From the NCBI RefSeq assembly GCF_016026235.1, contig NZ_CP065613.1: a stretch of DNA of 64,000 bases. One strand, given 5' to 3'. Below are positions 25,773-52,835 of this stretch, one piece after another. This DNA is from Escherichia coli. GTDB lineage: Bacteria > Pseudomonadota > Gammaproteobacteria > Enterobacterales > Enterobacteriaceae. A program made the translations under genes and the position numbers. Position 1 is the first letter of the stretch; each line of letters opens with the position of its first letter. Under the pieces are notes generated by a model, which saw only the letters and a program-made list of their open reading frames with translations, was not told the origin of the DNA and did no database searches.

Positions 25773-25780
25773 TTCATTTA

Positions 25781-26153: not shown

Positions 26154-26160
26154 GTGTGTG

Positions 26161-26190
26161 AATGCCGCCGATGGCGGCATTGCTTTTTTT
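26161..26190. terminator. Bidirectional terminator between ydfZ and ydfI
   Basis: Hairpin AATGCCGCCGATGGCGGCATT followed by T7. Confidence 0.6.
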
Positions 26191-27649
26191 ACTTCACGGA
26201 ATATTTCGCCACGGTCGCTTTCGCGCCATGCGCTAATAAAGACAAGTACGCTTCCGTCACTTTTGCAGTAAACAAGCTATTGTCTGGCAAATCATCACCA
26301 AAGATTGCCTTAATCGCCAGCAATGACTGGACGCGCGCTTTCCCTTCGGCACTACTTTGTACAGCCTTCTGAATAACAGGTAACAGTGGGTCACTGATTT
26401 CTATCGGATTTCCCTGTTCATCAACACCACCGACATAACGCATCCAACCCGCGACGCCCAGCGCCAGCAGATCGAACTTGCTGTCATGCGCCAGATGCCA
26501 GCGAACAGAATCCAACATCCGCTGTGGCAATTTCTGGCTACCATCCATCGCAATCTGCCAGGTTCGATGACGTAACGCCGGGTTGCTATAGCGTTCAATT
26601 AATCGGTTAGCGTAATCTTGCAAATCAACGCCCTGCACTTTCAGCGTCGGCGCTTGTTCCTGCAACATCAAGCCATACGCCGCATAACGATAATGTTCAT
26701 CTTCCATGCAGTCATTAATGTGCTGATATCCAGCAAGATAACCCAAATACGCCAGGAATGAATGACTGCCGTTGAGCATGCGCAACTTCATCTCTTCATA
26801 AGGCAGCACATCACTAACCAGTTCGGCTCCCGCTTTTTCCCATTCTGGACGTCCGGCAACAAAGTTATCTTCTATTACCCACTGGCGGAAAGGTTCACAG
26901 GCAACGCCCGCAGGATCGCCCACACCGGTAAGTTGTTCGATTTTCGCCAGCGTATCCTCTGTCACTGCGGGCACAATACGGTCCACCATTGTTGATGGGA
27001 AAGTCACGTTATCTTCGATCCATTGTGCCAGTTTTTCATCAACGGCTTGCGCGTAGGAAGTGACAACGTCACGCATAACATGACCGTTTTCTGGCATGTT
27101 GTCACATGACATGACGGTAAATGCGGGAAGTCCTGCCGCTTTACGGCGAGCCAGCGCCTCAACAATCACCCCTGTTGCTGTTTTCGGCTGGTGGGGATTT
27201 TGCACGTCGGCAACGACCATCGGGTGATCGAGCATTAACTGTCCGGTCGCCGGAGAGTGGAAATACCCTTTTTCGGTGATTGTCAGAGAGACAATCGCGA
27301 TTTGTGGTTCACACATCGCAGCCAACACGGTTTCTAAGCCATCCATCTGTACGTGCAAGGCTTTTTTAACGACGCCAACGACGCGAGCCGTCCACGCATC
27401 GGCCGACATTTCCGCAACGGTATAAAGATTATCTTGCTGTTGTAAATCGGCAATTTGCTGTTCGCCACCGATTAAGTTGACCTCATAATATCCCCAGTCA
27501 CTGAAATGTTCTGTAGCAAGAATATCGGCATACACGCCCTGATGCGCACGGTGAAATGCACCAAAGCCTAAATGAACAATTCTTGGGGCCAGGTTATTAC
27601 GATCATAAACAGGGAGTGTCGCTTTTGCTGATAACAAATTATTTCCCAT
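26189..27649 (-). CDS. ydfI: Mannitol-dehydrogenase-family oxidoreductase YdfI
   Basis: 486-aa ORF, Rossmann-like N-terminus. Confidence 0.85.
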
Positions 27650-27738
27650 AACAATTCCTTAAATTTAAATATGGCAAGCTACATGTTTTGTTATATGAAT
27701 AAAAAATCCCCTCTCCGGTAAGAGAAGGGATTAAGGAT

Positions 27739-29022
27739 TTAAAGACTTCTGGAAGGTTGCGCAGCTCTTACAACACGCGGTTGATCTTCCGCAGCGTCTT
27801 CCAGCGCACTTAAATCACGGTCTTTCACTTCTGGCATTTTCAGCGCAGAGATTAAACCAATCACTGAATATGCCATGATCATAATGGCGATCGGATACCA
27901 GGATTCCGTCATGGTGCAGAAAATACCCGCCAGGATAGGACCAAAACCGGAAGCGATAAGACCACCAATTTCTTTAGAAATAGCCATCCGGGTAAAGCGG
28001 TTTTTACAGCCGAACATTTCTGCCATGGTAATGTTTTCCAGAGCAAATAATCCCAGCACCGCACAGTTATGAATCACAATCAGTGCAACCATAATGGTGC
28101 TCGGGGCATAGCTTTTATCTACGATGATAGAAAGCATTGGCCATGCCAGCACAATCGCGGAGGTATTCATAATAATATACGGGATCCGGCGACCAATTTT
28201 ATCGGATAACCAACCAAGGAACGGAATGGTCATAAAGCCGAGAATCGAACTAATCATCAATGCATCTGTTGGAATTGCTTTGTTAAACAATAACGTCTGC
28301 ACTAAATAGCCTGCAAGGAAAGTCTGAATTAACCCGGAGTTACCCGCCTGACCAAAACGCAGCCCTGTTGCCAGCCAGAAGGATTTGCTCTGGAACATGC
28401 TACCAGCAGGTGCAGGTTTTGCTGTCGGTTGGTTGCTGTCATTAACCTTCTCAAAGACCGGGCTTTCTTTCAGATTCATACGTAACCAGATAGCAAAGAC
28501 CATCACGACAACGCTCGCCAGGAACGGTATACGCCATCCCCACGCCAGCAGTTCCTCTTTACTGAGAATGAAGAACATAAAGGCCCAGATTGCCGTTGCG
28601 CTCAAGGTTCCGCAGTTAGTTCCCATAGCTACAAATGAGGAGATAATTCCGCGCTTACCTTTTGGCGCATATTCCGCCAGCATCGTACCGGCACCGGAAA
28701 TTTCCGCACCTGCACCCAATCCCTGAATAATACGCAGCGTCACCAGCAAAATGGGTGCAAAAACACCAATCTGTGCATAGGTCGGTAACACACCAATTAA
28801 GGTGGTACAGATCCCCATCATGGTGATGGTAATAAAGAGCACTTTTTTACGCCCTATTCTGTCGCCCATTTTGCCGAAAATAAATGCTCCGACAATACGC
28901 GCCACATAACCTGCACCGTAGGTTCCCATTGCCAAAATTAACGCCATTGCCGTTGATGATTCAGGAAAAAATATTTCATGAAACACTAACGCTGCGCCGA
29001 GCGAATATAACTGGAAATCCAT
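27739..29022 (-). CDS. ydfJ: MFS metabolite transporter YdfJ, apparently N-terminally truncated at the prophage junction
   Basis: 427-aa ORF starts inside the first TM helix with a stop two codons upstream in frame; ProP-like MFS proteins carry about 25 more N-terminal residues. Confidence 0.75.
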   Translation of the reverse strand: MDFQLYSLGAALVFHEIFFPESSTAMALILAMGTYGAGYVARIVGAFIFGKMGDRIGRKKVLFITITMMGICTTLIGVLPTYAQIGVFAPILLVTLRIIQGLGAGAEISGAGTMLAEYAPKGKRGIISSFVAMGTNCGTLSATAIWAFMFFILSKEELLAWGWRIPFLASVVVMVFAIWLRMNLKESPVFEKVNDSNQPTAKPAPAGSMFQSKSFWLATGLRFGQAGNSGLIQTFLAGYLVQTLLFNKAIPTDALMISSILGFMTIPFLGWLSDKIGRRIPYIIMNTSAIVLAWPMLSIIVDKSYAPSTIMVALIVIHNCAVLGLFALENITMAEMFGCKNRFTRMAISKEIGGLIASGFGPILAGIFCTMTESWYPIAIMIMAYSVIGLISALKMPEVKDRDLSALEDAAEDQPRVVRAAQPSRSL

Positions 29023-29626
29023 AATTCACAGGTGTTTTTTCCCATCCTGTGGTTTCCTTGGCGTTTTCTAGGTTTTTTCAGATAGTTGCATTTTTTAAAA
29101 AGCATCCTAAGTTCGATCTCAGTGTCTATCTGGGGCCTATTTCTGTCCCATATATGCCCCAAAAAAAACTCCCCAACAGATAAGTAGTTTTTTCATGGAT
29201 TTATGCGTAAAATCAAGAACGGCTGGAAATCATTCAATACTCACACTATCGAAAAATTTACCAGCCAACCGCAGCACGTTCTTGCATAAGGCGTGTCTGC
29301 GGTTTTTCAACTATTCAGATACATCACTCCCATCACATTCATTCCTCCGCATCAAAGGCATATAGGCTATATCACCTTGATATTTTTCTTTTTCAGATAA
29401 AAACTGTTATCTATGTATACTTTTAAACCCAATCCGTGTAGAGTCTCTGCATAAGATAGTTTACAGTTGCCGCTTCAGCTTGCGCCATAAACCGCCTGAT
29501 TTTTGCTGCCACCTGTTAGCATTCCTGTATACCTGAAACGACAATGTTTATCTACGAACTTTAAGAACACCCAAGATAAAAATTGTCAACTATATCATAT
29601 ATAACACATTACTAATTCGAGGCTAT

Positions 29627-29740
29627 ATGAACAGCATACTGATAATCACATCTCTCCTTATCATATTCAGCATTTTTAGTCATGCCCTAATAAAATTAGG
29701 GATTGGCATATCCAATAACCCAGACAAAACCGATGTATAA
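29627..29740 (+). CDS. Candidate small hydrophobic protein (37 aa) upstream of ydfK
   Basis: ATG with a GAGG Shine-Dalgarno 7 nt upstream; encodes [37 protein letters not shown] (one predicted TM helix). Confidence 0.3.
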
Positions 29741-29775
29741 GTCAACATATCCTGAATCAGACATACAATATCGCA

Positions 29776-30042
29776 ATGAAAATCAATAATATTTTAAGGA
29801 ATATCTTCATGAAATCAAAAGACACCCTAAAGTGGTTCCCTGCGCAGCTTCCTGAAGTAAGAATTATCCTAGGGGATGCTGTAGTGGAAGTAGCAAAACA
29901 GGGAAGACCTATCAATACCAGAACATTGCTTGATTACATTGAAGGAAACATAAAGAAAAAATCATGGCTGGATAACAAAGAATTATTACAAACAGCGATA
30001 TCAGTTCTTAAAGACAACCAAAATTTAAATGGTAAAATGTAA
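29776..30042 (+). CDS. ydfK: Prophage cold-shock-associated protein YdfK (alternative start at 29809 giving 77 aa)
   Basis: 88-aa ORF; internal MKSKDTLKWFPAQLPEVRIILGDAVVEVAK... matches YdfK/YnaE-type prophage proteins as recalled. Confidence 0.75.
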   Translation: MKINNILRNIFMKSKDTLKWFPAQLPEVRIILGDAVVEVAKQGRPINTRTLLDYIEGNIKKKSWLDNKELLQTAISVLKDNQNLNGKM

Positions 30043-30358
30043 TATAATAAACTTACTTTTTTATCATTTTTCCACTTTAACAACATTTTGCTCCACTTTT
30101 CCACGACCAAACAACTTGAAATCTGGTTAAAATAACACGCAACACTATTCTTCTTCCTTGAGTCCGCCCGGAACTCGAAAAACAAACCGAGTTAAAGCCA
30201 TTTTTCACAAAATCGATTTTGGGTCTCACCAAAATTACGGGGTTGCATACGCATTCGTTTATTTTCGAACGTGTACATACAAATATGCACAAAAATAATC
30301 ATAATTATTTTCTGAGATGCATTATGATATGAACACCAATTTCGTATAGAGTCTCACT

Positions 30359-30949
30359 ATGTCTCGAATTTTTGCTTACTGTCGGATATCAACGCTGGAT
30401 CAGACCACCGAAAATCAACGCCGGGAAATCGAAAGTGCAGGTTTTAAAATCAAACCTCAGCAAATAATCGAAGAACACATTAGCGGCTCAGCAGCAACCA
30501 GTGAGCGTCCTGGTTTTAACCGGTTGCTTGCTCGCCTGAAATGTGGTGATCAATTGATTGTGACAAAACTGGATCGCCTTGGTTGTAATGCAATGGATAT
30601 CAGGAAAACAGTGGAACAACTGACCGAAACAGGTATCAGAGTGCATTGCTTAGCATTGGGTGGCATTGACCTGACCAGTCCAACAGGAAAAATGATGATG
30701 CAAGTAATTTCAGCAGTCGCTGAATTTGAACGAGACCTTTTACTTGAACGCACTCATTCCGGGATAGTAAGAGCCCGCGGCGCAGGGAAACGTTTTGGTC
30801 GACCACCTGTGTTAAATGAAGAACAGAAACAGGTGGTATTCGAACGAATTAAGTCAGGTGTAAGTATAAGTGCCATTGCCCGGGAATTCAAAACCTCGCG
30901 GCAAACCATTTTAAGAGCCAAAGCAAAACTTCAGACACCTGACATATAA
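30359..30949 (+). CDS. pinQ: Serine-recombinase DNA invertase Pin (Gin/Hin/Cin family)
   Basis: 196-aa [23 protein letters not shown]... with catalytic Ser in the RIS motif and C-terminal HTH. Confidence 0.9.
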
Positions 30950-31046
30950 AAAATAATCTCGGTGTGAGATGCTTTACGTCTTCCAAGCCCCCTTCCTTGC
31001 CGTAAATGGAAAGATACATCTAATTATAGAATTTATATGTTTTACC

Positions 31047-31622
31047 CTACGGCAGTGCTGGCCATTCAATATCCTGTGCAGTTGACGTATCAACACGGTT
31101 CAGCAATACCCGATACTTTTTCCATGCTTCCAGCAACGAGATTTCTTCCTCCGTTGCAATTTCCAGATCTGCAGCATCCTGAAGCGGCGCAATATGCTCA
31201 CTGGCTACCTGCATCAGGTTGTTTTTTGTTTCTTCCGCCTCCCGGATCCGGAACAGTTTTTCTGCTTCCGTATCCTTCACCCAGGCTGTGCCGTTCCACT
31301 TCTGAAACTCCCCTTCCGGCGATAACCAGGTAACATTTTCCGGTAACGGACCGAGTTCAGAAATAAATAACGCGTCGCCGGAAGCCACGTCATAAACCGT
31401 TTTACCCCGATGATCTTCAACGAGATGCCACGATGACTCATCACTGTTGAAAACAGCCACGAAGCCAGCCGGAATATCTGGCGGTGCAATATCGGTACTG
31501 TTTGCTGGCAGACCTGTATGAGGCGGAATATATGCATCACCTTCACCAATAAATTCATTAGTTCCGGCCAGCAGATTATAAATTTTTATGGTCCGTGGTT
31601 GTTCACTCATTCTGAATGCCAT
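31047..31622 (-). CDS. tfaQ: Tail fiber assembly protein Tfa
   Basis: 191-aa ORF directly downstream of the stf C-terminal segment. Confidence 0.85.
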
Positions 31623-34600
31623 TATGCAAGCCTCACAATATAGTTAAATGCGATGTTTTTGACGGTGTTTTCCGCGTTACCAGCAGCGTTAACGGTGATG
31701 GTGTGTCCATGTGAACCAATCGCAACGGAGTGCGTATGAGCACCAATACCGACAGTATGCGCGTGTGCACCTGCAGATGCTGCTGTGCCGGACAGTGAGT
31801 GGCTATGATTACCATCTGTACTGGTATTAGCTAACCACCCCGTAGACATACCTACTGAGCCTTGTACACCCCAGGTATTTTGACCTGAGCTTGTATAACC
31901 ATATTGATAAGTATCTTTAAAAACACTGGGGTTAAATCGACGGCCATCTCTATGGCTGTGATTACCAGCTGCATTCGTGCTGCCACTTAAACTATGGGTA
32001 TGCGCACCAGTGTTATTCGTGGATTTAGTGCCGTAATCAAACGACGATGTGGTTTTCGTCCCCAAATCCGTACTGGATGCGCTGGCGCTGTGGGTATGCG
32101 ATTTAATGCCGTCCTATTCCTGAGACAATACGGCCCGACCACTGGTAGGTTTGCCCTTAATCGTCCAGCCACGCATATCAGGGATCACGCCTGACGGATA
32201 AGCCGCTGCAAGTTTCGGGTATGCAGATTTGTCAAAAGTCTGCCCCTGCATCAGGGCATAGCCAGACGGAACGGTATCTGATGGCCACGGGATTGGTGCA
32301 CCGACTGGATAAAACTCTGCAGGAGGATGAGCCGAGGTGTAAAGCTGCGCCCACGGCGACCAGTTTGCGTCGGTCGTATCCCGTCGTGAACGAATAAATG
32401 CCGGAGCATGAGCACCGCTTGTACCACTCCAGCCGATGAGTAACTCACCTTCGCCAACGGCTGTCATCCCTTTCAGGTGAATGATATTTCCATACGCTGT
32501 TGGATATCCGTTGTTATACACCTCGTATAACTCAAGACCTGTTGCCCCCTGCGTATTGTCTGTCAGCGCGGTTACCCGACCTTTTGAAGACAGATTAACT
32601 GATGATACTGCTGTTCCACCTGACGGTAACGCCCCGATCTCTGATGCCGTTGGCTTATTTCTGGAGTTATAGTCCCTTCGCCAGCCAGGTGAATAATCTG
32701 TTCCGTGATTAATATAGGTAAACTGGGCGTTAGTTGTTCCACCACCAGTGGAGGTGGTCGGTGTGGTAATGCGGATCGTCATCGCTGACTTTATCCCCAT
32801 TACTTCAATGACAGCTCCGGCGAGATGAATATTACCGCAGTCAGTATCAGTAATGATTTTATTATTGCCATAAGACCAGGAACCCTTGCACATCCAGTAG
32901 GGATGGTTAAATGCTCCCTGAGAATCCAGCCACTCGATAAACTGTGCAGTCGTCCAGTTTCCTGTTATTGTGCTTACTGACCCACCAAAGGCACGGCAGG
33001 CACCAATATTTTTCGTAAAGGTGTCTTTGCCAGGGATATCCGCACCGTTCTGATCTTTCTGCAGACGTTTCTCAGCATTGTCATAGGCTGTTTTTACTGC
33101 CTTTGGTGTCGCGGCAAGCGTTTCAGACGTGCTGTTGGTCGCGCTGCTTAGCTGGATTATCCCTTTCTGTGCTGTCGTTGCATCCTGTGCGGTGTATTTC
33201 CCGTTAGCCAGGTCATACGCGGCCTTAACGGCTTTTGGTGTTGCCGCCAGTGACTCGGAAGTGCTGTTAGTCGCACTACTGAGCTGTACTATCCCCTTTT
33301 TCGTCGTGCTCGCATCCTCAAGCGCCACAGCGGATGCAATATCCTCTGCCCGTTTTGCTGCTGTCTCGGCGCGCGTTGCTGCGGATTCTGCCGTACTCTT
33401 GCTCTGTGCTGCCGCCGTCGCACTGCCAGCAGCCTCTGTTGCCTTCGTGGATGCCGTCGTGGCGCTGCCCTTCGCTGCTGACGCTTGTCTGGTCGCCTCA
33501 TCTTTTGAAGCAGACGCCGATGAGGCCGATGACGCCGCCGAACTGGCGGACGATGCGGCAGCCGTTTTTGAGGATTCTGCGCTGGTTTCCGACGCTTTCG
33601 CGTTCGTTTCGGATGTCTTCGCTGCGGAAGCTGACCTCGCTGCTGCGCTGGCCTGTTCAGTGGCTTCGCCAGCCTTCGTTGTGGCTGTTGAAGCGGATGA
33701 TGCGGCGCTTTCTGCCGATTTTCCGGCGGCGATGGCACTGGCTGAGGCCTGCCCGGCACTTGTTGACGCGGCACTGGCAGACGACGCAGCCGCTGTTTTT
33801 GAGCCTGCCGCAGCTGAGGCGCTCTGTCCCGCTGCCGTCTCAGAAGACCTGGCGTTCGTCTCGGACGTTTTTGCCGCCTTCGCGGAATTTGCTGCCGCCG
33901 TTGCCGAGGAAGCTGCGCTACTGGCGCTCGAGGATGCGTTCGTTTCTGATGATTTTGCCGCCTCTTTTGAAGCCGACGCATCCTGGGCTGAGGTGGCAGC
34001 TTCTGACGCTTTCGTAGTCGCGGTGGATGCAGAAGTGGCTGCTGATTGTTGTGACGCTGCAGCATTCGTTTCTGACGTTTTCGCGGCACTGGCACTGGTA
34101 GCTGCCGCGCTTTTTGAGGACTCTGCAGCGGCAGCACTTTTTGATGCTTCAGTGGCCTTTGCTGATGCCGTTCCTGCGCTGGAAGACGCTGACTGAGCCG
34201 ACGACGCGGCCTGTCCGGCTGACGTGCTGGCTGCGCGTGCTAAGCCTGCAGCATCAGTTGCATGGGTTGCCGCCTCACGGGCTGATGTGCCGGCATCGCT
34301 GGCTGACTTCTTCGCGGCTGCTGTGTTCTGTGCCACCGCGGACGCGTTACGCGCCACCTCTTCCACCATCAGTTCAAAACGTCGCAGTGCCTCCGGACGG
34401 GCATCATCCTCCGTCATGGCACCGAGAAAATCATTCAGCGTACCGGGTTGAGAATCTTCATACACGGTGATGGTCCCGGCATGTGACGGCGGGAATCCTT
34501 CCACCAACAGAATAACGCTGTACTGACCGTACTCAACGTCCATGCTGTAACGCCCGGCTTCATCCGGATTTTCTGAGGCCAGCGTGTTCACCACCACCGC

Positions 34601-34693
34601 GGTGCTGTTACGTTTTGCTTTCAGCTGGATTGTGCAGTTCTGTACCGGTTTTCCTGTGCCGTCTTTCAGTACACCTGAAATCTTTACTGCCAT
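31622..34693 (-). pseudogene. stfQ: Side tail fiber Stf, interrupted by an in-frame amber codon at 32114-32116
   Basis: 873-aa ORF (lambda-Stf-like [26 protein letters not shown]... start at 34693) and a 147-aa ORF with His-rich tail-fiber repeats share one frame, separated only by TAG. Confidence 0.7.
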
Positions 34694-34756
34694 ATTCACC
34701 CCACAAAAAGCCCGCCTGAACCAGCGGGCTGTCATAACACTGTGTTACCTGGCTAA

Positions 34757-35356
34757 TCAGAACTTATAACCGACACCCACGATGAAACCGTCAGTGCGCC
34801 AGTCGCCACTGCCGGAACCTTCATAAGCAAGGTCAATGGCCACGGATTCGGTCGGGTTAAACTGCACGCCAGCTCCCCACGCCAGAGACGTGTTGCTGTG
34901 GCGACCGTCATCACTTCCGGTCAGCACGTCGTGCGTTTTCCCCTTGTTGTCAGTTACGCGGAGATAATCCCCGGAGAAAGTCGACACACGGCTGTAAGCC
35001 ATACCCGCCATCGCATACGCGCTGAACCATTCATTCACGCGCACAGACGGCCCCACCATCACGCTGAACCAGCGGTTACGCACGGAATCTTCATGCCAGC
35101 GGGTATCGCTGTAACGGGTAAGCTGGCGATTCTTGTCTCCTGCATAGCTGAATGACGTCACCAGCCCCAGTGTGTCCGTAAACTCATAACGGTATTTCAC
35201 GTTAATCCCGTTAAGATCATCGCTGCCGGGAACGTTCGTCGAGGCATGAAGATACCCCGCGCTCAGCGTGGACTGATGTTCAGATGCCCATGCAGGCGCA
35301 CCGGATACGGCCAGACAAATGGCTGCGGACAAAATGGCGGCATAAAGTTTACGCAT
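34757..35356 (-). CDS. lom: Lom-like outer-membrane protein (Ail/Lom/OmpX family)
   Basis: 199-aa ORF with signal peptide and beta-barrel pattern, ending ...VGVGYKF. Confidence 0.85.
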
Positions 35357-35380
35357 AATTACCTCTCGCTTTTCTGCAAT

Positions 35381-35404
35381 AAAAAAGGCACCATTTCTGG
35401 TGCC
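35381..35404 (-). terminator. Hairpin plus U-run on the minus strand between J and lom
   Basis: Minus strand reads GGCACCAGAAATGGTGCC followed by TTTTTT. Confidence 0.45.
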
Positions 35405-35425
35405 CTTATATGGGTTATAACAATT

Positions 35426-38838
<3,413 letters not shown>

Positions 38839-38895
38839 TCACGCTCCATAAACGACAAAACCGCCCGGAGGCGGTTTCACATAAAACGTTTTTCA

Positions 38896-39543
38896 TCAGC
38901 GACCAATCACCACAACCTGACCACCATCCCCTTCGTCTGCCGTGCGGATCTCCTGAGAGACCACCCGCGACCCCACGCGCATTTCACCGTACAGAACGGG
39001 CAGAACATTGCCCTGGGCAACCATGTTATCCAGTGAGGAGAAATAGGTGTTCTGTTTGCCGTTATCTGTACTTGCTGCCGTGGGCGTCCTGGCTTTCGGT
39101 GCCAGCATCTGCGCCACTCCGCCCAGGATCATACTGGCCCCTGCCGCATACATGCCCGATACAGCCGCGGCACCCAGCCAGCCCACAGGGTTCCACCATG
39201 CCACCGCAATCAGCGCCACCCCCAGCACCACCTGAAACACACTGCCACTTTTAGCTCCCGCCAGACGCGGCACGATGTGGATCACGGCACCATTTGCCAG
39301 CGGCTCATTAAGACGGGCAGACAATTCGGTTTCACCTGCATCACGCCCGGCAATGCGTACCTGGTACCAGCCGTCGCTCAGTTTCTGACGAAACGCCGGG
39401 ATCTGCATGGCCAGCGCCCGGATGGCTTCGGACCCCGTTTTCACTCGAAGGTCGATGCGGCGGCCAAATCGTTGTAAATCCCCGTAAAGGCAGATGCGTG
39501 CCATGCCCGGTGACGCCAGAGGGAGTGTGTGCGTCGCTGCCAT
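38896..39543 (-). CDS. Tail assembly protein I (lambda gpI-like)
   Basis: 215-aa ORF in lambda gene order. Confidence 0.85.
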   Translation of the reverse strand: MAATHTLPLASPGMARICLYGDLQRFGRRIDLRVKTGSEAIRALAMQIPAFRQKLSDGWYQVRIAGRDAGETELSARLNEPLANGAVIHIVPRLAGAKSGSVFQVVLGVALIAVAWWNPVGWLGAAAVSGMYAAGASMILGGVAQMLAPKARTPTAASTDNGKQNTYFSSLDNMVAQGNVLPVLYGEMRVGSRVVSQEIRTADEGDGGQVVVIGR

Positions 39544-40193
39544 TTGTCGGTGTACCTCTCTCGTTTGCTCAGTTGTTCAGGAATATGGTGCAGCAGCTCG
39601 CCGTCACCACAGTAAATGGCGGCATGATTCGGCACCGATGAACCAAAACAGCACAGCAGCACATCGCCCGGCTGCGCCGCTGACAACGGCACCTGATACA
39701 GCCCTGTGGCCTCCAGATTATCCAGATAGAGATTCTGACCGTTACGCCACCAGTCATCCTCGCGATGAAAATCCGGCATCTCAATCCCCGCCAGATGGTA
39801 AGCATCCCGGAACAGCGTGTAACAGTCCGTCACCCCGTGCTCAAAGCGCCGCCCGGAAAGATGTGGCACACAGCGGAACTTGTGAATCGCCCCCCGGCAA
39901 ACCAGCCACCACGGCAAATCACTCTGCACCTGCAGCCGCCGGTCGGTCTCACTCAGCCAGGGCAGACCACCGGGGTGGCTGTGGACCAGCGCCACAATCT
40001 CACCCTGCATCTCTGCCCGCAGCCAGTCCTCCGGCGACATCCGGAAATACTCCTCCGGCTCACCGGAGATATTCACGCAGGGAAAATATCTTTCCCCCTC
40101 CGGTGTTCTCACCACGAAGCCGCACGACTCCGCTGGCGCACATCGCCGGGCGTGCGCCAGAATCGCTGATTCTGTCTCTGTCATGGGATTCAC
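39441..40193 (-). CDS. Tail assembly protein K (lambda gpK-like, MPN/NlpC-P60 type); 3' end overlaps I
   Basis: 250-aa ORF with HSHPGG (JAMM-like) and Cys-His peptidase-type motifs. Confidence 0.8.
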   Translation of the reverse strand: MNPMTETESAILAHARRCAPAESCGFVVRTPEGERYFPCVNISGEPEEYFRMSPEDWLRAEMQGEIVALVHSHPGGLPWLSETDRRLQVQSDLPWWLVCRGAIHKFRCVPHLSGRRFEHGVTDCYTLFRDAYHLAGIEMPDFHREDDWWRNGQNLYLDNLEATGLYQVPLSAAQPGDVLLCCFGSSVPNHAAIYCGDGELLHHIPEQLSKRERYTDKWQRRTHSLWRHRAWHASAFTGIYNDLAAASTFE

Positions 40194-40888
40194 TGCGAAA
40201 GTTTGTTAATGGAAAGGAAGCCGCCAAAGTTGCCGACGTTATTGCGAAACTTACAGCCGCTCAGGCATTTGCTGCATTTATCCTTCGTGATATCGGAGGT
40301 CGGCTGGTCATATTCATCCGCGACCGCCGGACCGTGATAACCGCACTCATCACCGCGATAGGTCCAGGTGCAGGTATTAGCCAGCATGATGCGCCCCGGA
40401 AAAACAGCGCCGTCCGTTTCCGTCGGCGTGGACAGTACAAAAGAGGCACTCACCGCGCTCAGTTCGCTGCACTGCTCGATGCGCCAGCGGCTGATCACCT
40501 CCTGCTCCGGATCGGCGTCACTGTTTCCGTTGACGAAGTTCACCGCATCCAGAAAACGGGCGTAAACCTTACGCCGGACCACCGTTCCTCCGACCAGACT
40601 CTGCAGGTCTTCCGCCATCCCGGTGACCATGCCGTGCAGGTTAGAAACCGTCAGTGTCGGACGGGCAGCACTGCCTTTGCCGTTCAGTTCAAATCCCGTC
40701 CCCTGAATGGGATACGCCTGATACTGTCGCCTCTGCCAGGTGACCGGCTCACCTTTATCGTTCTGCTCATTACAGAAAAAATAACGCTCACCACCGACCT
40801 CTGTCAGATCGATTTCCCAGAGCTCCACCCGGACTGACTGCTCCGCACGGGTGCATTCATTCAGTGTTTCCTGCCGGATATCCTGCAT
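40190..40888 (-). CDS. Minor tail protein L (lambda gpL-like)
   Basis: 232-aa ORF, same length as lambda L, in order. Confidence 0.85.
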   Translation of the reverse strand: MQDIRQETLNECTRAEQSVRVELWEIDLTEVGGERYFFCNEQNDKGEPVTWQRRQYQAYPIQGTGFELNGKGSAARPTLTVSNLHGMVTGMAEDLQSLVGGTVVRRKVYARFLDAVNFVNGNSDADPEQEVISRWRIEQCSELSAVSASFVLSTPTETDGAVFPGRIMLANTCTWTYRGDECGYHGPAVADEYDQPTSDITKDKCSKCLSGCKFRNNVGNFGGFLSINKLSQ

Positions 40889-41217
40889 CAGTTCACCACC
40901 TGTTCAAAATCGGCCGTTACAGTCACCCATAACGCCCCCACGCTTGCCGACCATTTACGACAAACCACCCTGATCGGTTTCCAGTCATAAGGTGGCGTCC
41001 ACTGAAATGCGCGGACGCCACCGTGCCGTTCCAGAAAGGCTTTTAAAGATGGGTGTTCACATTTACGAACACGTATCGTCACGCTGTAAATCGACAACTG
41101 GTTATTCAGTCCCGCCGCACGACGCTGTTCATAACCATCGCCCAGCTTCACTGTCACCACTTTCGGCTCTGATACCACATTCATATCCGGGCGCACTTTC
41201 CAGTGAAACGTCTCCAT
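40888..41217 (-). CDS. Minor tail protein M (lambda gpM-like)
   Basis: 109-aa ORF, same length as lambda M. Confidence 0.85.
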   Translation of the reverse strand: METFHWKVRPDMNVVSEPKVVTVKLGDGYEQRRAAGLNNQLSIYSVTIRVRKCEHPSLKAFLERHGGVRAFQWTPPYDWKPIRVVCRKWSASVGALWVTVTADFEQVVN

Positions 41218-44200
41218 TACCGATATGCTCCACTTAACCGACCACCATCACGGGCCTGCTGTTGCATAAAGTCCGCTGCCGCTTTTTTCCCAAGGTCATA
41301 AACCACCTTCAGGGCAGCCGGACCTATCTGCCCGTTCGTGCCATCGTTATTGATCTCGATGTTGTACTGCGGGGCAAACATCGCCATACCTGAACCACCA
41401 ATATCCGCCACAACCCCCAGCTTACCGTCAGCACCACGACGCAGTGGCAGAATGGCTTCAGGTCCAGCTTCCCCCATCACACCCGCGCCTTTTGCAAAAG
41501 CAAAAAACGTCGGACGGTTAACCACCGTGCCACTGTAACGACTCAAATCAGCAGACTGATAAATCCCCCCATTGGCATTCAGGGAAAGGCTGCTGAGATC
41601 AAATCCCAGTACACTGCCAATCCCTTTTATCGATTTCATCATGGTTGCCTGCGCCAGGATTTTCGCCATATCTGACAGCACCGAAGAGGTGAAGGATTTG
41701 AAGTTGAGTTTGCCGGTAGTGACAAAAGTTGCCAGGCCATTTCCCATGTTGCTGAAGGCTGATGAGAACACCTGTTCTGCTGTTCCTGCCGTATTGTCTG
41801 CATCCACGGTAAAATCCTGAAATGCACGCAGGACTCCGTTTTTCCAGTTACCCTGCACAACTTCAAGCTGTTGCCAGTAACGGCGATTCTCATTCAGTTG
41901 TCGGTTCAGGCTCTCCGTCAGCGCCTGCTCGGCCTTTCTGTAGTCATCCGTGTTATATGTCCCTTTCTGCTCACTATCCCGCCTCAACTGCTCCAGCTGT
42001 TGCTGGTATTTCTGGCGAAGACTCAGTTGTACCTGATATCGCTGCCGCTGCTGATCACCCATACCCACCGTGGCGATATCCAGGTCATGTTGCTGACGCT
42101 GAGCGCGCTCTTCTTCAGCCAGTTGACTGGTCAGCTGAATTGTTTTTTTCTTCAGATCGTTGAGTGCCGTTTGTTTCTGAAGCTCCTGCTGTTTTACATC
42201 CAGCAGCGTCAGTGCCTGAATCAGCTCATTCTTACGGGCCAGCACACTCTTTTCATCTGCCGTCAGCTTTTTCCCGTCCAGGTCGCTGATGCGCTGCTGC
42301 AGGGCCAGAAGCTGTTTATGCGCTTCAGTCATCCTTTCAGTGGCAATGCCTGCTGACTGTCTTGCAGCAGCAATCTGTCCTTCCACCTGTGCCTGTTGCT
42401 GACTGTACTGCAGCAATAACCGGGTGGCCTCATCATTACGGGTTTCGCGTGTTTTTTTCTTACCGGATGCCAGGGCTTTCTCGTAACGTTCATTTTCACG
42501 TTGTATCGCCGCATCCCTGACAGCCTGGTCGGCGTACTGCATGGCATTAATACGCGCAATTTCACGCTGATGTCGTGCTGCTTCCGTTTCATTCATCCGG
42601 TTCAGTGCAGCATTTTCAGCATTACGTCGTTTCTGTTGCTCCTGATAATTCCGCTCTGCCTGCTCTTTTGCATCCTGCAAATCCTTCTGGCGTTTTTTCT
42701 CCTGAAGATCGTTAAGACGCTGCTGATCGTATTCAACCTGAGAAGATGATGCCGTCCAGGGGAGTCTTTTCGCCCGCGACACTTTCTCCTGTAAAGCGGT
42801 AATCTGTTCATCCAGCGAGTCTTCACGACCAATATTCATGGCCGCATCCCAGAAACGACTCCACAAATCAGACAGATACTTCAGCGTACTGCCAAGCGCA
42901 TTGAGGTTATTATCAATATCCGCAGTACGCCGACCGGTTTCCTCTGCCAGTGCAGACATGGCTATCCGTGCAGCATCACTGGACCGTCCCTGATCCCCAA
43001 GGACACGTATCTGCTCAAGCTGAGTGGCAGTAAGAAAATGCAGCTCATTGTCCAGAGCCTTCGCGGCATTTACAGGATCATCCTTCAGCCGCTTAAACTG
43101 ATTTATGGTATCGCTGACCGACTGGCCAACCGATCGCTCCATCTGTGCGGCAGCTCTCGCCACCATACCGATATCGTTTCCACGAAATGCACCACTCCCC
43201 ACCACCTGCGCCAACGCACCGGCTGCAGCATGTTGCGTGATACCATTCCCGGAAATAGCACGACTGAGCGTCCACAGCTGCCCGGCAGTGACTCCGGCAT
43301 AATGCCCCGTCAGCGACAACTGGCGGTTAAATTCTTCCCCCTCCTTCTGACCGTCATACCAGGCTTTACCCAGACCATAGACGGCCGCGGCAATACCGCC
43401 AATAACCCCGCCAAGCATCATGCCTTTCGGTGACATCAGTGCGCCTGTCCATCCGGCACGGTTAGCCAGCGTTATCCCGGATCCCCTCAGCGCCCCTAAA
43501 TTGCCGCGGGCCAGTTCACCTATCAGAACGCCTATCTCCTGGCGGGCTGCTGCACTTTTCAGACCCAGCGAATGCGTGGCTTTTCCTGCCTGCTCCATTT
43601 TGCGGATATACACTTCTGCAGCACTGCTTACCCCCAGCTGGGCTGCCCTGGCGCGAAGCAACTCAGAAGATGAAAGATTCTGGCGGGTTGCCTGCTCTTT
43701 AAGCTGACGGATAAACGCCACTTTCTGTCGGGTAGCCTCTTCCTCAGCCTGTGTAAGAACACGGGTTTTCGCAGTAACCTCAGAAATCAGCGCCAGATAA
43801 TCCTGCTGACCAATCCCGCCACTGTTTCTGGCCTGTCGGATCTGCTGCTGAATACGCTGTAATTCCTGCAGCCCCGCACTGGCCTGTTTCACACTGTCAA
43901 TCTGACGATAAAACGCAGCAGCCGCTTTATCCTGAGCCTCCGCCAGAGCCATGGCCTGCGCCTGTTCCTCGCGCATTTTCTGGCTCAGCGCCTCCATGCG
44001 CTGGCGGGTTTTCTCCACCTCGCGGGCCATGCGTTCATGAGCCTGTGCGTTCTTCTCCACCGTCTGCGCATGGACGGATGCGGCTGTTGCAGCCGAAGAA
44101 GCCGCCTGCGTTGTCTGCCGGGCGGCCTGAGTCTGACGCTCCATAAAACGCTGCATACGGGCAGAAGACCGTTCTGCATCGCTGGCTGCACCATTCAGAA

Positions 44201-44282
44201 GGTTTTTGATACGGGGAATTTCATTTTTAAACTCTGCCGCATCAATCCCCAAATCAATGACCAGGTTGGCTATCTGGTCCAT
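41217..44282 (-). CDS. Tail tape measure protein H (lambda gpH-like), start taken at MDQIANLVIDLGIDAAEF
   Basis: ORF 41217-44312; coiled-coil-rich about 1020-aa protein with gpH-like N- and C-termini (...NNDGTNGQIGPAALK...). Confidence 0.85.
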   Translation of the reverse strand: MDQIANLVIDLGIDAAEFKNEIPRIKNLLNGAASDAERSSARMQRFMERQTQAARQTTQAASSAATAASVHAQTVEKNAQAHERMAREVEKTRQRMEALSQKMREEQAQAMALAEAQDKAAAAFYRQIDSVKQASAGLQELQRIQQQIRQARNSGGIGQQDYLALISEVTAKTRVLTQAEEEATRQKVAFIRQLKEQATRQNLSSSELLRARAAQLGVSSAAEVYIRKMEQAGKATHSLGLKSAAARQEIGVLIGELARGNLGALRGSGITLANRAGWTGALMSPKGMMLGGVIGGIAAAVYGLGKAWYDGQKEGEEFNRQLSLTGHYAGVTAGQLWTLSRAISGNGITQHAAAGALAQVVGSGAFRGNDIGMVARAAAQMERSVGQSVSDTINQFKRLKDDPVNAAKALDNELHFLTATQLEQIRVLGDQGRSSDAARIAMSALAEETGRRTADIDNNLNALGSTLKYLSDLWSRFWDAAMNIGREDSLDEQITALQEKVSRAKRLPWTASSSQVEYDQQRLNDLQEKKRQKDLQDAKEQAERNYQEQQKRRNAENAALNRMNETEAARHQREIARINAMQYADQAVRDAAIQRENERYEKALASGKKKTRETRNDEATRLLLQYSQQQAQVEGQIAAARQSAGIATERMTEAHKQLLALQQRISDLDGKKLTADEKSVLARKNELIQALTLLDVKQQELQKQTALNDLKKKTIQLTSQLAEEERAQRQQHDLDIATVGMGDQQRQRYQVQLSLRQKYQQQLEQLRRDSEQKGTYNTDDYRKAEQALTESLNRQLNENRRYWQQLEVVQGNWKNGVLRAFQDFTVDADNTAGTAEQVFSSAFSNMGNGLATFVTTGKLNFKSFTSSVLSDMAKILAQATMMKSIKGIGSVLGFDLSSLSLNANGGIYQSADLSRYSGTVVNRPTFFAFAKGAGVMGEAGPEAILPLRRGADGKLGVVADIGGSGMAMFAPQYNIEINNDGTNGQIGPAALKVVYDLGKKAAADFMQQQARDGGRLSGAYR

Positions 44283-44583
44283 AACGCACACCTCCGGAAA
44301 TACCTTCCCCAAGATGCATCAGTTCTTCGTCCGTTCGCTCCGGTATCCCGTTCTCTTCCGGTAAAAGGCTGAAATCAGCCACCGCAGCATCACTGCTGCC
44401 GGACACCATTCTCACGATCAATGCCTTCAGCGAGGCAAACTGCGCATCCATCCACACATCACTGAAGCTCTGCATCCGGAAATAATCGCCCCACTCACCA
44501 AGCTCAGTGGCCGACATTTCCGACAGCATCCGCCGCCAGTCTGCCCGCCTGAACTCCCGGGCAAGCCGCATGACAAACTGCAT
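44254..44583 (-). CDS. gpT frame of the tail assembly chaperone pair; expected to be made only as a G-T fusion by -1 frameshifting
   Basis: 109-codon ORF in the -1 frame relative to G, overlapping the G 3' end and the H 5' end. Confidence 0.55.
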   Translation of the reverse strand: MQFVMRLAREFRRADWRRMLSEMSATELGEWGDYFRMQSFSDVWMDAQFASLKALIVRMVSGSSDAAVADFSLLPEENGIPERTDEELMHLGEGISGGVRYGPDSQPGH

Positions 44584-44591
44584 TTCCCGCG

Positions 44592-44978
44592 TCAGGACTT
44601 TTCCGGCGTCAGCACCTCATGCTCCAAATCCCCGGCATTCTCAATGGCTCCCATACCGCTCAGCGACAGAACCATCTCCGCCCCCGCTCCCAGGGCATCA
44701 TACGACCATGTTGTAATAACGGATGCGCAAAGCGTCTCAACATCCTGAGACTGTTCCGCATTCCACAGTGAGCGGGAAACCAGCCAGGCATTGATATCCA
44801 TCCCCATCCGTAGAAAAGCAATCTGTCGTTCAGCCTCCGGCAGTTCTCCCTCTTCGGCATCAAACTTTGCCGTTCGCTGCTGAACAAACGCCAGATATTC
44901 AATTCTCTGCAGCCCGGACAGCTCACTGAGCACCACGGACTGCTTTTCATAATTAAACGTGCCCTGTTTCAGAAACAT
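44592..44978 (-). CDS. Tail assembly chaperone G (lambda gpG-like)
   Basis: ORF 44592-44996; start at MFLKQGTFNYEKQSVVLSELSGLQRIEYLA, similar to the lambda G N-terminus. Confidence 0.8.
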   Translation of the reverse strand: MFLKQGTFNYEKQSVVLSELSGLQRIEYLAFVQQRTAKFDAEEGELPEAERQIAFLRMGMDINAWLVSRSLWNAEQSQDVETLCASVITTWSYDALGAGAEMVLSLSGMGAIENAGDLEHEVLTPEKS

Positions 44979-45037
44979 CATGTTCTCCGGATGCAAAAAG
45001 CCCCGGATAACCGGGGCAAATGATGAGTATCGTCCTG

Positions 45038-45669
45038 TTAACCTGCGGCGCTGACAGCCACCGTAGCCACTGCCACAAAATCGCCGTCAGAAGTCATGCC
45101 CACAATGCTGACACTGCCCTGCTTCACGCCTTTCACCGTGGCAGTCTGTGGATCTGTCGAATGCACACTGATCGCTTTGTCACTGGCTCCGTCAGGTTTT
45201 ACTGTAAAGGTCAGCGTGGTGGTTGCTCCCGCTTTGACACTGGCAGATGCCGGTGCCATCGTCAGCCCGGTAACGCCCACGATTTCAGTGCCTTCCTCTG
45301 CCAGATACGGAAAACATCAACAGTACCGTTGGGATATTTGATACGAAAAGCGCAGACTTCACCGGAGTCGAACAACTGAACCAGTTTTTTCTGCCCGCTG
45401 TCCCCCGGACGCCAGGCCAGCGTCGCCGAAGTATCACCGACTGATTTCTGCCCCTGGGTTGTCGTTTTCCAGTCTGCATCTTCATCATCGAGATAAGTGT
45501 CATCTTCTGCATCAGCGGTCATTTCGCCAGGTTGCAGATCCTTCACCATCGCAAGACGCAGCCAGTCAGTGTCCGATAAAGGGTTCGCAAACGCATCGCC
45601 CTTGCCGGTATACATCCAGAACGTCGTTCCCGCACCTTTCGTTTTTGCCAGTGGATTTGGTGTGGTCAT
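45038..45669 (-). pseudogene. Major tail protein V, disrupted by an out-of-frame internal deletion
   Basis: N-terminal part ([18 protein letters not shown]...VDVFR, then 14 out-of-frame codons and stop at 45262) and C-terminal Ig-like part (...[25 protein letters not shown]...) lie in different frames; about 30 codons present in lambda V are absent. Confidence 0.65.
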
Positions 45670-45679
45670 TACCACCTCC

Positions 45680-46081
45680 TTAATTCGTGTACGTGATCTG
45701 GTACGTGATTTCCGCCATCGCCCAGGTGGCCATCTCATTATCACGTTGATAGTTAAAACCGAGTGGGATCAGGGTGTCGATGAGTCCGGAAAGTGCTGGT
45801 ACATCATTCAGGGCCGGGAAAATGGTGCTCTCCATCCACATATCCAGCTCTGAATCCGGTGCCTGTGCCCGGATGAAGACAGCAATATGCAGAACAGCCT
45901 GCCAGTCATCTTCATCCGTCATTTTTCCGGTGTACTGAGCATCACTCAGCCACACCGCCACGGCAGGCAGTTCCTGCGCATCAACAAATGCCGGAAGCCC
46001 GTCAAAAAACGTGGCGCTGTCTCCACACTGTTCCCGAAGGCGTGCCAGTACGACCTGGCGGATTTGTGTATGTCGGTTCAT
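45680..46081 (-). CDS. Minor tail protein U (lambda gpU-like)
   Basis: ORF 45680-46093; start MNRHTQIR... at 46081, overlapping the Z stop (ATGA). Confidence 0.85.
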
Positions 46082-46656
46082 CGGGTCAGCCATAACCTCA
46101 GTTGTTGTTTCAGTGCATACCCCAGCTGTTTCGGCATTTCCGCAGCAATGATGCGGTCGCGGGCATCTTCAAATGTCTGTGTCAGCGGTCCGGACAGCGG
46201 GATTTTCACCACATCAATGGGGTAACGATTTTTGCCATCAATACGCCGCATCACATGCCAGCGACCATTCGCCAGTTGCTGAATAAACGCATCCCGGAAA
46301 AGATATTTACCCACCTTCAGCACACTGCCACGGTACTGCAGTTTTCCACCACGCCGGGCCAGTCTGACCCGGGCTGTCCCCAGCTTAATGGCAGGCAGAT
46401 TGCCCCGGTTAACGCGGATCCTGGCCGTCATTTTTCCTGACGGACTGGCTTTAAACACCCGGACACGCTGACGTACCAGTTTCAGGGGGATCCCTTTCAC
46501 CTGGTTATCTCCCGCAACGGTATTCCCGGCAACCTGCCGGGTGGCAACCGAGACCGCTTTCTGTGCCACACGGTTTATCGCCCATGCGCTGGCCTGTGGC
46601 ACCATACGGGTATCAAGGCTGTTCAGATTGCGGATGGCATTCTCAAGCCCCTTCAT
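46078..46656 (-). CDS. Tail completion protein Z (lambda gpZ-like)
   Basis: 192-aa ORF, same length as lambda Z. Confidence 0.85.
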   Translation of the reverse strand: MKGLENAIRNLNSLDTRMVPQASAWAINRVAQKAVSVATRQVAGNTVAGDNQVKGIPLKLVRQRVRVFKASPSGKMTARIRVNRGNLPAIKLGTARVRLARRGGKLQYRGSVLKVGKYLFRDAFIQQLANGRWHVMRRIDGKNRYPIDVVKIPLSGPLTQTFEDARDRIIAAEMPKQLGYALKQQLRLWLTR

Positions 46657-46667
46657 CCCACACCTCT

Positions 46668-46943
46668 TTACTCAATAAAGATCATTGGCTTACCGTTAAA
46701 GCGTTCATGCCGTGTGACCGTCCATTGTTGTCCGTCATAAACAACGCGATCACCGCGCCGTGGGCGGTATCCCGAAGAAAACACCACCAGAGAGACCGCA
46801 GGTCCGGACAGAGCATTCAGCTCTGCCAGTGTTTCTCCCGGGATCACAGTCATATCGACATCATTAATCGAGGCTGTCTTTCCCATCTTTCTGACCGTGA
46901 TAGCATCCATACGCGCTGCCAGCCGGGAAAAGGGATCAGACAT
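46668..46943 (-). CDS. Putative head-tail joining / adaptor protein (FII-position gene)
   Basis: 91-aa ORF immediately upstream of Z; assignment by position only. Confidence 0.5.
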   Translation of the reverse strand: MSDPFSRLAARMDAITVRKMGKTASINDVDMTVIPGETLAELNALSGPAVSLVVFSSGYRPRRGDRVVYDGQQWTVTRHERFNGKPMIFIE

Positions 46944-47259
46944 TGAGTTTTACCGGCACTTCTTCTGCACTGGTTCCGGCATCTGCCCAGACAACCCCGA
47001 CCAGCGGATCAGAGCCGCTGTTAGTCAGCTGAATTTTTCCGGACTTCAGATAAACCTTCTTACCCGTTTTCATGTCATCCGTTTTCAGCTTAGGCAGCAT
47101 AAACACACCTTCGGTCATGCCGTCGCCTGTTTCACCCTGTGGAATATCGGTCAGCGCCACCGCAAAAACATCGCCCACCTGCACCAGATCTCCGCTGCTG
47201 ATGGCTGCACTGGCAACAATCGCCACCGTTTTTCCTTCTTCTACAAAATTCTTTGCCAT
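46936..47259 (-). CDS. Hypothetical phage head-associated protein
   Basis: ORF 46936-47304; probable start MAKNFVEEGKTVAIVA at 47259; sits between the capsid gene and the head-tail joining gene. Confidence 0.45.
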   Translation of the reverse strand: MAKNFVEEGKTVAIVASAAISSGDLVQVGDVFAVALTDIPQGETGDGMTEGVFMLPKLKTDDMKTGKKVYLKSGKIQLTNSGSDPLVGVVWADAGTSAEEVPVKLNV

Positions 47260-47345
47260 AACTGTCTCCGCACAGCCCCGTTCAGGGGCTGATTTCAGGT
47301 ACAAAAAAAGCCCTTACGGGCCATCAGAGATGTTGTCTGCGACGT

Positions 47346-49057: not shown

Positions 49058-49100
49058 TGAGGTGTACTGGCAATAGCGGACACTACCATTTGTTCTTTTT

Positions 49101-49919: not shown

Positions 49920-49954
49920 CGCTTCAATGGGAAATTGTTGTCGCCATTGTTCGA

Positions 49955-50257
49955 TTAACGCGTATTTTTCAGCGACTCCTGTGCAAAATACGCTGTTGCT
50001 TTTTTTAATATATCTCGCTCAAGGCGAGCTTCATTTAACGCCTTACGCAGTTGCAGAATTTCAGATTCCAGTTCAGCCACCGTGCGGGAGCCAGGAGTAC
50101 CGAGCCCTTTTCTGGCGGCGGTAACCCATTGTCCTAAAGTGCCTTCAGGAAGGGATAATCGGGAAGCGCCTTCACTGATCGAAAGTTGATTTTCAAGAAC
50201 CGTTCTGACAGCTTCGGCTTTGAACTCTTTAGAGTAACGTTGGGTTTTTCTGCTCAT
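49955..50257 (-). CDS. IS3-family transposase OrfA (HTH, leucine zipper)
   Basis: 100-aa ORF MSRKTQRYSKEFKAEAVR...; ends ...LKKATAYFAQESLKNTR with the A7G run (plus 49998-50005) at the LKK codons. Confidence 0.85.
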   Translation of the reverse strand: MSRKTQRYSKEFKAEAVRTVLENQLSISEGASRLSLPEGTLGQWVTAARKGLGTPGSRTVAELESEILQLRKALNEARLERDILKKATAYFAQESLKNTR

Positions 50258-50439
50258 TATTAGCTCCTTCTGATGCCATTCTATTTCAGGAAGGAGTGTC
50301 CGTTAAACTCAGGCTACCTCAGTTTTCCCTGACTCTTACGCCTTTATAAACAAACCAGATACGTAATTTCCCTCCATGGCTTTCCACGCCTGTCGGATAT
50401 TTCATTTCAATTTCTCTCATTAGTTAGTGTGGCTTTTAG

Positions 50440-50691: not shown

Positions 50692-50763
50692 CGATTTCTT
50701 TATCTCTTACATCAGACGAGCGCCGGTTGCAGAATACCAGTCACAACCGGCGACAGTTGAACA

Positions 50764-52824: not shown

Positions 52825-52835
52825 TATCTTACTCC

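Follow-up and report, generated by a model that had tools for sequence, protein, structure and literature searches.

Qin-type prophage integration clipped ydfJ in an Escherichia coli chromosome, and insertion sequences in all likelihood closed the way to its repair

How did the sugar-acid-type transporter gene ydfJ of this Escherichia coli chromosome come to begin in the middle of its first transmembrane helix, and could excision of the adjacent prophage make the gene whole again? The ORF lies in a 64-kb stretch of DNA that was analysed as a whole (hereafter, the window). It comprises 1284 nt and encodes 427 amino acids, with the N-terminal residues MDFQLYSLGAAL in the ORF list, and the product matches residues 29-455 of WP_000151243.1 with 100% identity. 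On the gene strand, the sequence up to the start reads ...AAA AAA CAC CTG TGA ATT ATG, with an in-frame TGA two codons before the ATG, exactly where the original prediction had put a stop. The AT-rich phage DNA that it described beyond the start is present as well: the GC fraction is 0.43-0.51 inside ydfJ and only 0.33-0.39 from 29000 to 30350, and the DNA past 29028 is Qin-type prophage DNA. The 1284-nt ydfJ is tagged 'incomplete; missing N-terminus' by PGAP in every prophage-bearing genome that we opened, whereas in the K-12 RefSeq record the 427-aa ORF is entered as an ordinary CDS. The features on which the following argument draws are listed in Table 1.

Table 1. Positions in the window of the clipped ydfJ gene, its chromosomal neighbours, the prophage remnant and the insertion sequences at the far prophage end
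Feature	Position	Strand	Basis and remarks
ydfI, mannitol dehydrogenase family, 486 aa, intact chromosomal neighbour downstream of ydfJ	26189..27649	minus	ORF list; syntenic annotation in XJ34, K-12 and others
Terminator-like hairpin between the ydfJ stop codon and ydfI	27705..27732	minus	Consensus scan only
ydfJ', clipped MHS-family MFS transporter gene	27739..29022	minus	Codons 29-455 of 455; ORF otherwise intact
Attachment core at the window-left junction (tail-fibre-proximal prophage end), GAAATCCATAATTCA, 15 bp	29014..29028	none	Three-way junction comparison; limits of the K-12 Qin feature agree
Qin-type lambdoid prophage remnant, late genes only	29029..49057	none	Identity to K-12 Qin and to the 20Ec-P-124 prophage
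IS600, IS3 family, 1264 bp	49058..50321	minus	RefSeq 'IS3-like element IS600'; Pfam and NCBIfam matches; junction sequences
Inverted int'-xis-exo' remnant, 583 bp	50322..50904	minus	Identity to XJ34 Qin; Arm-DNA-bind_2 and DUF1233 matches
ISEc60, IS4 family, distant IS10 relative, 1294 bp	50905..52198	plus	RefSeq name; NF033591 and PF01609 matches; terminal repeats
rspB', 5' 626 nt of the 1020-nt rspB	52199..52824	minus	Empty-site synteny; ADH_N and the first 36 positions of ADH_zinc_N only

A megablast comparison of window positions 27600-29400 with 5426 complete E. coli genomes matched ydfI and ydfJ in 5425 of them. The matches run past the start of ydfJ' into prophage-type flank in 3180 genomes (the number that a coverage threshold of at least 80% implies), and in many genomes they end exactly at query base 1429, that is, at window position 29028. 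An uninterrupted ydfJ site was identified in 2007 of the 5426 genomes. In one of the prophage-free genomes, NZ_CP159141.1, ydfJ directly adjoins rspB and comprises 1368 nt that encode the 455-aa protein WP_000151243.1 (N-terminus MTIEKHERSTKDLVKAAVSGWLGTALEF-MDFQLY); homology between this genome and the window breaks off at 29028. An identical 455-aa ydfJ is found in five further empty-site E. coli genomes. Given that the exact breakpoint is common to K-12 and about 3180 complete E. coli genomes, chance is not at issue here.

The alignment with prophage-free ydfJ that had been proposed as a way of delimiting the attachment core was carried out as a three-way comparison of the empty site (genome L002), the left junction in the window and in K-12, and the int-proximal junction in K-12 and XJ34. 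In the window orientation, these read AACTG GAAATCCATAAATTCA AGCGCAG, AACTG GAAATCCATAA-TTCA CAGGTGT and ACTCTT GAAATCCATAAATTCA AGCGCAG, respectively, which gives a core of GAAATCCATAA(A)TTCA, with GAAATCCATAA as the perfectly common part. The core has a 16-bp form (GAAATCCATAAATTCA) at the empty site and at the int-proximal junction, and a 15-bp form at the junction in the window. The latter junction, which under the lambda convention would be attR, is the same as the K-12 Qin junction over the 81 bases compared; ydfJ is clipped at a true attachment junction, as predicted, and this junction is a reliable marker of the Qin integration site. The ATG of Met29 lies inside the core, and the stop two codons upstream is the core's own TGA. 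In intact ydfJ (CTT GAA TTT ATG), this TGA is out of frame; it is in frame in the window (CTG TGA ATT ATG) because the core form found there is one base shorter. Since the int-proximal junction carries the 16-bp form, excision with a crossover to the left of the extra base would be expected to regenerate the wild-type ydfJ frame.

Beyond the core, the remnant contains ynfT, ydfK, pinQ (30359-30949), tfaQ, a tail fibre gene, a lom-like gene, a frameshifted gpJ and tail assembly genes, followed by tape measure, tail tube (with an internal deletion) and head genes and by a ClpP-protease/capsid fusion gene that is cut at 49057, its 5' 313 nt being absent. Window positions 20733-31818, Qin part included, are 98.8% identical to K-12, and the remnant up to 49060 shares 98.4-98.7% identity with the fuller prophage of strain 20Ec-P-124. 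The genes beside the junction (ynfT, ydfK, pinQ, tfaQ, stf) are those of Qin, with the same annotation in XJ34. Of the marks of a Qin prophage at ydfJ, then, the core junction and the gene content are present in the window, and the second junction, with the ydfJ 5' fragment, is missing. In K-12, where the 'cryptic prophage Qin' feature spans 1632277..1652745, that fragment is annotated as ynfP.

How much of the protein is lost can be gauged from an AlphaFold2 model of full YdfJ, built from 123 diverse homologues (mean pLDDT 93.8, pTM 0.91), in which helix 1 comprises residues 10-45 with pLDDT above 90. According to this model, Met29 sits 19 residues into the 36-residue helix, so that ydfJ' starts mid-helix, in agreement with the original prediction that the MFS ORF starts within the first transmembrane helix. 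Both G23 and E27, which belong to the missing part, are at least 90% conserved across the 123 MHS-family homologues. An AlphaFold run on a shallow alignment of 14 near-orthologues yielded a mean pLDDT of 35 and was discarded. A sequence search of PDB chains for a solved relative of YdfJ returned none at E <= 1e-5, so the helix limits given here are not drawn from an experimental structure. Full-length YdfJ matches TIGR00883 (metabolite/H+ symporter) with 462.9 bits over positions 1-400, starting from residue 23, and its Pfam MFS_1 match opens at residue 21; the clipped protein matches TIGR00883 from profile position 7 with 453.5 bits, the cut-off being 443.45. The clipped protein passes the cut-off of the MHS-family model but lacks the complete 12-helix core with the whole of TM1 (G..E..D..Y signature), and it does not agree in length and start with its orthologues (455 aa at the E. 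coli empty site, 454-460 aa elsewhere).

The product of the clipped gene is most likely non-functional. The alternative is that ydfJ' is a live gene, which would be transcribed from the phage side, translated from Met29 and active as a transporter or, more broadly, maintained as a working or regulatory membrane protein; we consider it unlikely in either form. The 1284-nt ORF is intact in all 10 clipped copies that were sampled from diverse E. coli, and pN/pS is practically the same for these 10 copies as for 6 intact ydfJ copies (0.021 vs. 0.023). If the clipped gene were maintained, this would explain the open frames and a pN/pS of about 0.02 even where repair by excision is impossible. The TIGR00883 score, still above the cut-off, and the CDS in K-12 RefSeq also speak for a live gene, as does a K-12 RNA-seq study in which ydfJ expression differed upon induction of DicC, which indicates that it is transcribed there (bioRxiv 10.1101/2024.09.21.614188). 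However, 19 of the 36 residues of helix 1 are gone, together with the two family-conserved residues. Moreover, a consensus scan of about 770 bp upstream of ydfJ' found no promoter-like site above chance on the gene strand, and there is no good Shine-Dalgarno sequence upstream of the ATG.

The low pN/pS, for its part, is uninformative on decay because clipped and intact alleles are intermixed and the distances along the two arms of the junction are discordant. Thus, 7 synonymous changes separate the ydfJ allele in the window from an allele that is intact, and 33 separate it from one that, like itself, is clipped. The distance between the window and ETEC6333 is 0.026 for the host arm and 0.003 for the phage arm; for ST865 and P27, the corresponding values are 0.002 and 0.40. 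Such discordance indicates that prophages have been gained, lost or replaced repeatedly at ydfJ, and most of the divergence among the clipped copies may accordingly predate each clipping event, to judge from these alleles.

If the clipped gene is indeed non-functional, the question becomes whether the damage is reversible. The missing ydfJ codons would normally be found at the other end of the prophage, as the original prediction held, and this is where the 28 codons lie, at the int-proximal end, in K-12 (as ynfP), XJ34 and assembly GCA_901482675.2 (L020). The second junction, with the ydfJ 5' fragment, is present in these three genomes and in GCA_014155105.1 (L042). In the window, synteny with the empty-site genome resumes only at 52199, which corresponds to position 5958 of L002 and falls inside rspB, such that the 3' 394 nt of rspB, the rspB-ydfJ intergenic region and the 5' 78-84 nt of ydfJ are all absent from the right end. 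Neither the ydfJ 5' fragment nor its N-terminal peptide in any frame was found within the 64-kb window, in which the attachment core, too, occurs only once.

What occupies this end instead is a remnant of the integrase region between two insertion sequences. IS600 has no target-site duplication (CAA on the left, GTT on the right) and hence marks a deletion joint. Next to it, int is reduced to its first 33 codons (50319-50420), which encode the arm-binding domain; the excisionase gene (50440-50691, DUF1233) is intact but inverted; and of the exonuclease (ydfE-like) gene, only the last ~140 nt are left. This remnant is 98.3-98.8% identical to int-xis-exo of the XJ34 Qin prophage and has the opposite orientation relative to rspB.

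The second element, ISEc60, has the terminal repeats CTGAGGAATCCCCAGAAAA and CTGAGGGATCCCCAGAAAA, with the inverted repeats CTGAGG(A/G)ATCCCCAGAAAA, and its flanks in the window do not match each other (GGCTTTCCC vs. CAGTCAGCC). The transposase matches NF033591 (360 bits) and PF01609 (DDE_Tnp_1). The transposase type, the inverted repeats and the target duplication of ~9 bp upon simple insertion, seen in L020, are those of the IS4 family. IS10 itself was considered and ruled out, the transposase being 36% identical to that of IS10A/ISVsa5 and the RefSeq name being ISEc60; as far as the sequences go, 'IS10-like' is a fair family label but not an identity. The joint of exo', ISEc60 and rspB' was found in 0 of the 5426 complete E. 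coli genomes.

With a single copy of the core, an integrase gene of 33 codons and an excisionase gene that is intact but inverted, the remnant does not have what excision takes. There is no second att site, no usable integrase and no 5' fragment in the window, and therefore excision cannot rebuild ydfJ and the remnant is locked in place; the prediction that this copy probably cannot be restored by excision is supported.

The path by which the integrase end was lost can be followed in public assemblies, where the chimeric RspB' product was found by means of an exact-protein index. One of these assemblies, GCA_900449985.1 (contig UGFA01000002.1), matches the window over 20,630 bp with 100% identity. 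Two others represent earlier stages. In L020 (stage 1), the same ISEc60 copy sits in rspB with a 9-10 bp duplication (GGGCTGACTG) on its flanks, and beyond it follow the 3' part of rspB, a 42-aa ORF (MTIEKHERSTRDLVKAAVSGWLGTALEFMDFKSHTCQLFDKY) in which the ydfJ 5' fragment continues into phage DNA, and int, xis and exo, all three intact and normally oriented. In L042 (stage 2), which is 100% identical to window positions 49058-57856, two inverted ISEc60 copies flank an inverted rspB3'-ydfJ5'-att-int-xis-exo3' segment, and the exo target TGGCTTTCCC(C) adjoins both copies. In the same assembly, the IS600 copy that is found in the window interrupts int as a simple insertion, with GTT duplicated at its ends. 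The window has the L042 arrangement minus everything to the left of IS600, back to the capsid gene.

Comparison of these arrangements supports a loss in several steps, namely ISEc60 insertion, inversion and an IS600-adjacent deletion. Of the earlier claim that an IS10-like deletion replaced the other end of the prophage, the part that stands is that the end is gone; the single deletion gives way to a multi-step loss that would have involved both ISEc60 and IS600. A look-up of the truncated capsid product, intended to reveal any relative in which another IS600 copy occupies the capsid breakpoint, returned only contigs of the same lineage that are broken at the IS, and no genome was found that combines IS600 at the capsid breakpoint with the rest of the prophage. 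The last step is accordingly left as either of two processes: two IS600 copies could have recombined, or transposition could have occurred intramolecularly.

The multi-step history also bears on the possibility that the ydfJ 5' fragment was not lost but moved elsewhere by IS-mediated inversion, in which case the two halves of the gene would still coexist in the genome. We regard this as very improbable. A displaced fragment is not without precedent: in the near-identical L042, it survives between the two ISEc60 copies, and the IS600 and ISEc60 joints, which lack target duplications, could be the endpoints of larger rearrangements. However, the right flank of IS600 is identical to that in L042, and on the left the sequence passes directly into the capsid gene of this same prophage, a pattern typical of a local deletion. 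Furthermore, the index lists the exact 42-aa ORF for 7 assemblies, both relatives (L020 and L042) included, and the same exact-ORF look-up did not find it indexed for GCA_900449985.1, which supports its loss and is no proof of absence. The 82-aa ORF of the rspB 3' part is called in 552 index blocks and hence is not specific as a tracer of the lost segment. Even if the fragment were located elsewhere, int would still be left with 33 codons.

There remains the question of whether 427 codons might simply be the native length. YdfJ orthologues from Citrobacter, Enterobacter, Leclercia, Lelliottia and Superficieibacter are 454-460 aa long with 82-85% identity, and residues 12-28 are nearly invariant among them; distant MHS-family homologues (30-40% identity) align starting at query residues 7-20. 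Among the E. coli empty sites and these five genera, we found no orthologue from a prophage-free genome that starts at Met29, so the comparison suggested as a potential refutation upholds the clipping instead. The reading of the 427-aa ORF as a native full-length gene, with a junction that is no insertion site, has on its side the K-12 RefSeq entry and one 427-aa call in the prophage-free contig L033, but that call was made although the 455-codon frame is open and, on the sequence, is an annotation choice, and the reading is refuted by the contiguous 455-codon genes at the 2007 empty sites and by the orthologue N-termini.

Taken together, these observations make us highly confident that Qin-type integration split ydfJ and that the stepwise, IS-driven loss of the integrase end blocks its repair, with a clipped ORF that is most likely non-functional. 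Under the scenario that we propose, a Qin-type lambdoid phage would have integrated site-specifically at the 15/16-bp core within ydfJ codons 27-32, splitting the gene such that the promoter, the start codon and codons 1-28 came to lie at the integrase end, beside rspB, and codons 29-455 at the tail-fibre end. The Met29 ATG would happen to fall in the core, and the TGA of the 1-nt-shorter form would close the frame upstream. The resulting 427-codon ORF would have been deprived of the first half of helix 1 and of any native expression signals, and to date it has suffered no further damage. ISEc60 would then have inserted into rspB, and a second, inverted ISEc60 copy in the exonuclease gene would have inverted the rspB3'-ydfJ5'-att-int-xis-exo3' segment. 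Subsequently, IS600 would have inserted into int, and an IS600-adjacent deletion reaching from the capsid gene to int codon ~30 would have taken the ydfJ 5' fragment and the second att site with it.

On this reconstruction, the IS elements would have made permanent a prophage disruption that had been potentially reversible, and a public assembly preserves each of the intermediate states. The window is a tidy case of prophage "grounding" in an IS-rich E. coli lineage and involves no new principle: it is ordinary prophage and IS decay that matters little beyond correct annotation. In that respect, the 427-aa "YdfJ" is better annotated as a clipped gene, as by PGAP, than as a normal CDS, as in K-12 RefSeq.

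Reversible disruption of host genes by prophages (active lysogeny) is represented by Listeria phi10403S in comK and, in B. subtilis, by skin in sigK and SPbeta in spsM. As with Qin at ydfJ, the phage sits in a coding sequence in these systems, and precise excision at a short core rebuilds the gene. To our knowledge, no regulated excision of Qin at ydfJ has been described. The window differs from the active-lysogeny systems in lacking the second att site and the integrase. The Qin-type prophages of 20Ec-P-124 and XJ34 share the left junction with the window but, unlike it, have intact int and xis and both junctions, so that ydfJ would be restorable by excision in principle. K-12 Qin (Kim; ydfJ b1543 / ynfP b4534) shares with the window the TGA-ATT-ATG and the 427-codon remnant, as well as ynfT, ydfK, pinQ and tfaQ adjoining the junction. 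In K-12, however, the int-proximal junction with ynfP and an intQ pseudogene is kept and most late genes are lost, whereas in the window ~20 kb of late genes are retained, and the early region, most of int and the 3' end of rspB have disappeared along with the second att site and the 5' fragment of ydfJ.

The truncation of ydfJ by Qin is itself already known, being annotated for K-12 and published: the truncation by 28 codons and the promoter loss have been described (PMC6379469), and the integration site of Qin has been tabulated as ydfJ in the W, K-12, B and Crooks strains (PMC3032704). Two other lambdoid cryptic prophages of K-12, e14 at icd and Rac at ttcA, likewise lie within host coding sequences and have short cores; e14 brings a duplicate icd 3' end and Rac an alternative TtcA N-terminus, and both host genes stay functional (PMC6379469). 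Unlike e14 and Rac, Qin provides no replacement for the N-terminus of YdfJ (PMC6379469).

The joint at which exo', ISEc60 and rspB' meet was found in none of the 5426 complete genomes of the E. coli RefSeq set. Copies of ISEc60 itself are carried by large plasmids and by the chromosomes of a few strains (e.g., CFSAN029787), and contig UGFA01000002.1 of assembly GCA_900449985.1 is 100.000% identical to the window across 20,630 bp. Because rspB lacks its 3' end at this joint, the rspAB operon is damaged in addition to ydfJ. In the neighboring int'-xis-exo' remnant, int is cut to 33 codons, and the excisionase ORF (83 aa, DUF1233) is unbroken.

Coordinates and condition of the prophage remnant, rspB and the tail-tip gene in the window
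Feature	Position	Strand or orientation	Condition
int'-xis-exo' remnant, 583 bp	50322-50904	inverted	flanked by IS600 and ISEc60
rspB, truncated	52199-52824		3' 394 nt missing; truncation by ISEc60
gpJ, prophage tail-tip gene	35422-38835	minus	frameshifted vs. J of 20Ec-P-124

Comparison with the fuller Qin-type prophage of strain 20Ec-P-124 shows that gpJ in the window has lost a single nucleotide, at J nucleotide 2804 of the 1137-aa reference, and that the frame is consequently shifted, so that the ORF ends at codon 948 (approximately window position 35991). The alignment to the same prophage is also broken at approximately 45296-45311, where about 70 bp are gone within the gene for the 247-aa tail tube protein; in GCA_900449985.1, this gene is represented by two called ORFs, of 135 and 80 aa.

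Annotation of the clipped ydfJ differs among genomes. The K-12 RefSeq record (NC_000913.3) enters it as an ordinary CDS (1631002-1632285) and assigns the 5' fragment its own protein entry, YnfP (1652728-1652838), whereas in other genomes the clipped ORF carries a pseudogene label from PGAP. In one prophage-free contig, a 427-aa ydfJ product is called despite an open frame of 455 codons.

Outside the prophage, sequence that is absent from K-12 includes a 6.3-kb segment in the marB-eamA interval (10696-16980), with ORFs of 481, 557, 440 and 232 aa, and a 498-bp insertion in the dgcF-yneG intergenic region (1881-2378).

When the uninterrupted ydfJ-rspB site was used as the query, only its ydfJ 3' side was matched in the complete E. 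coli genomes D72, M7638 and 57_142493, the rspB-proximal half being missing from all three; the ydfJ 5' fragment has therefore been lost in other lineages as well.
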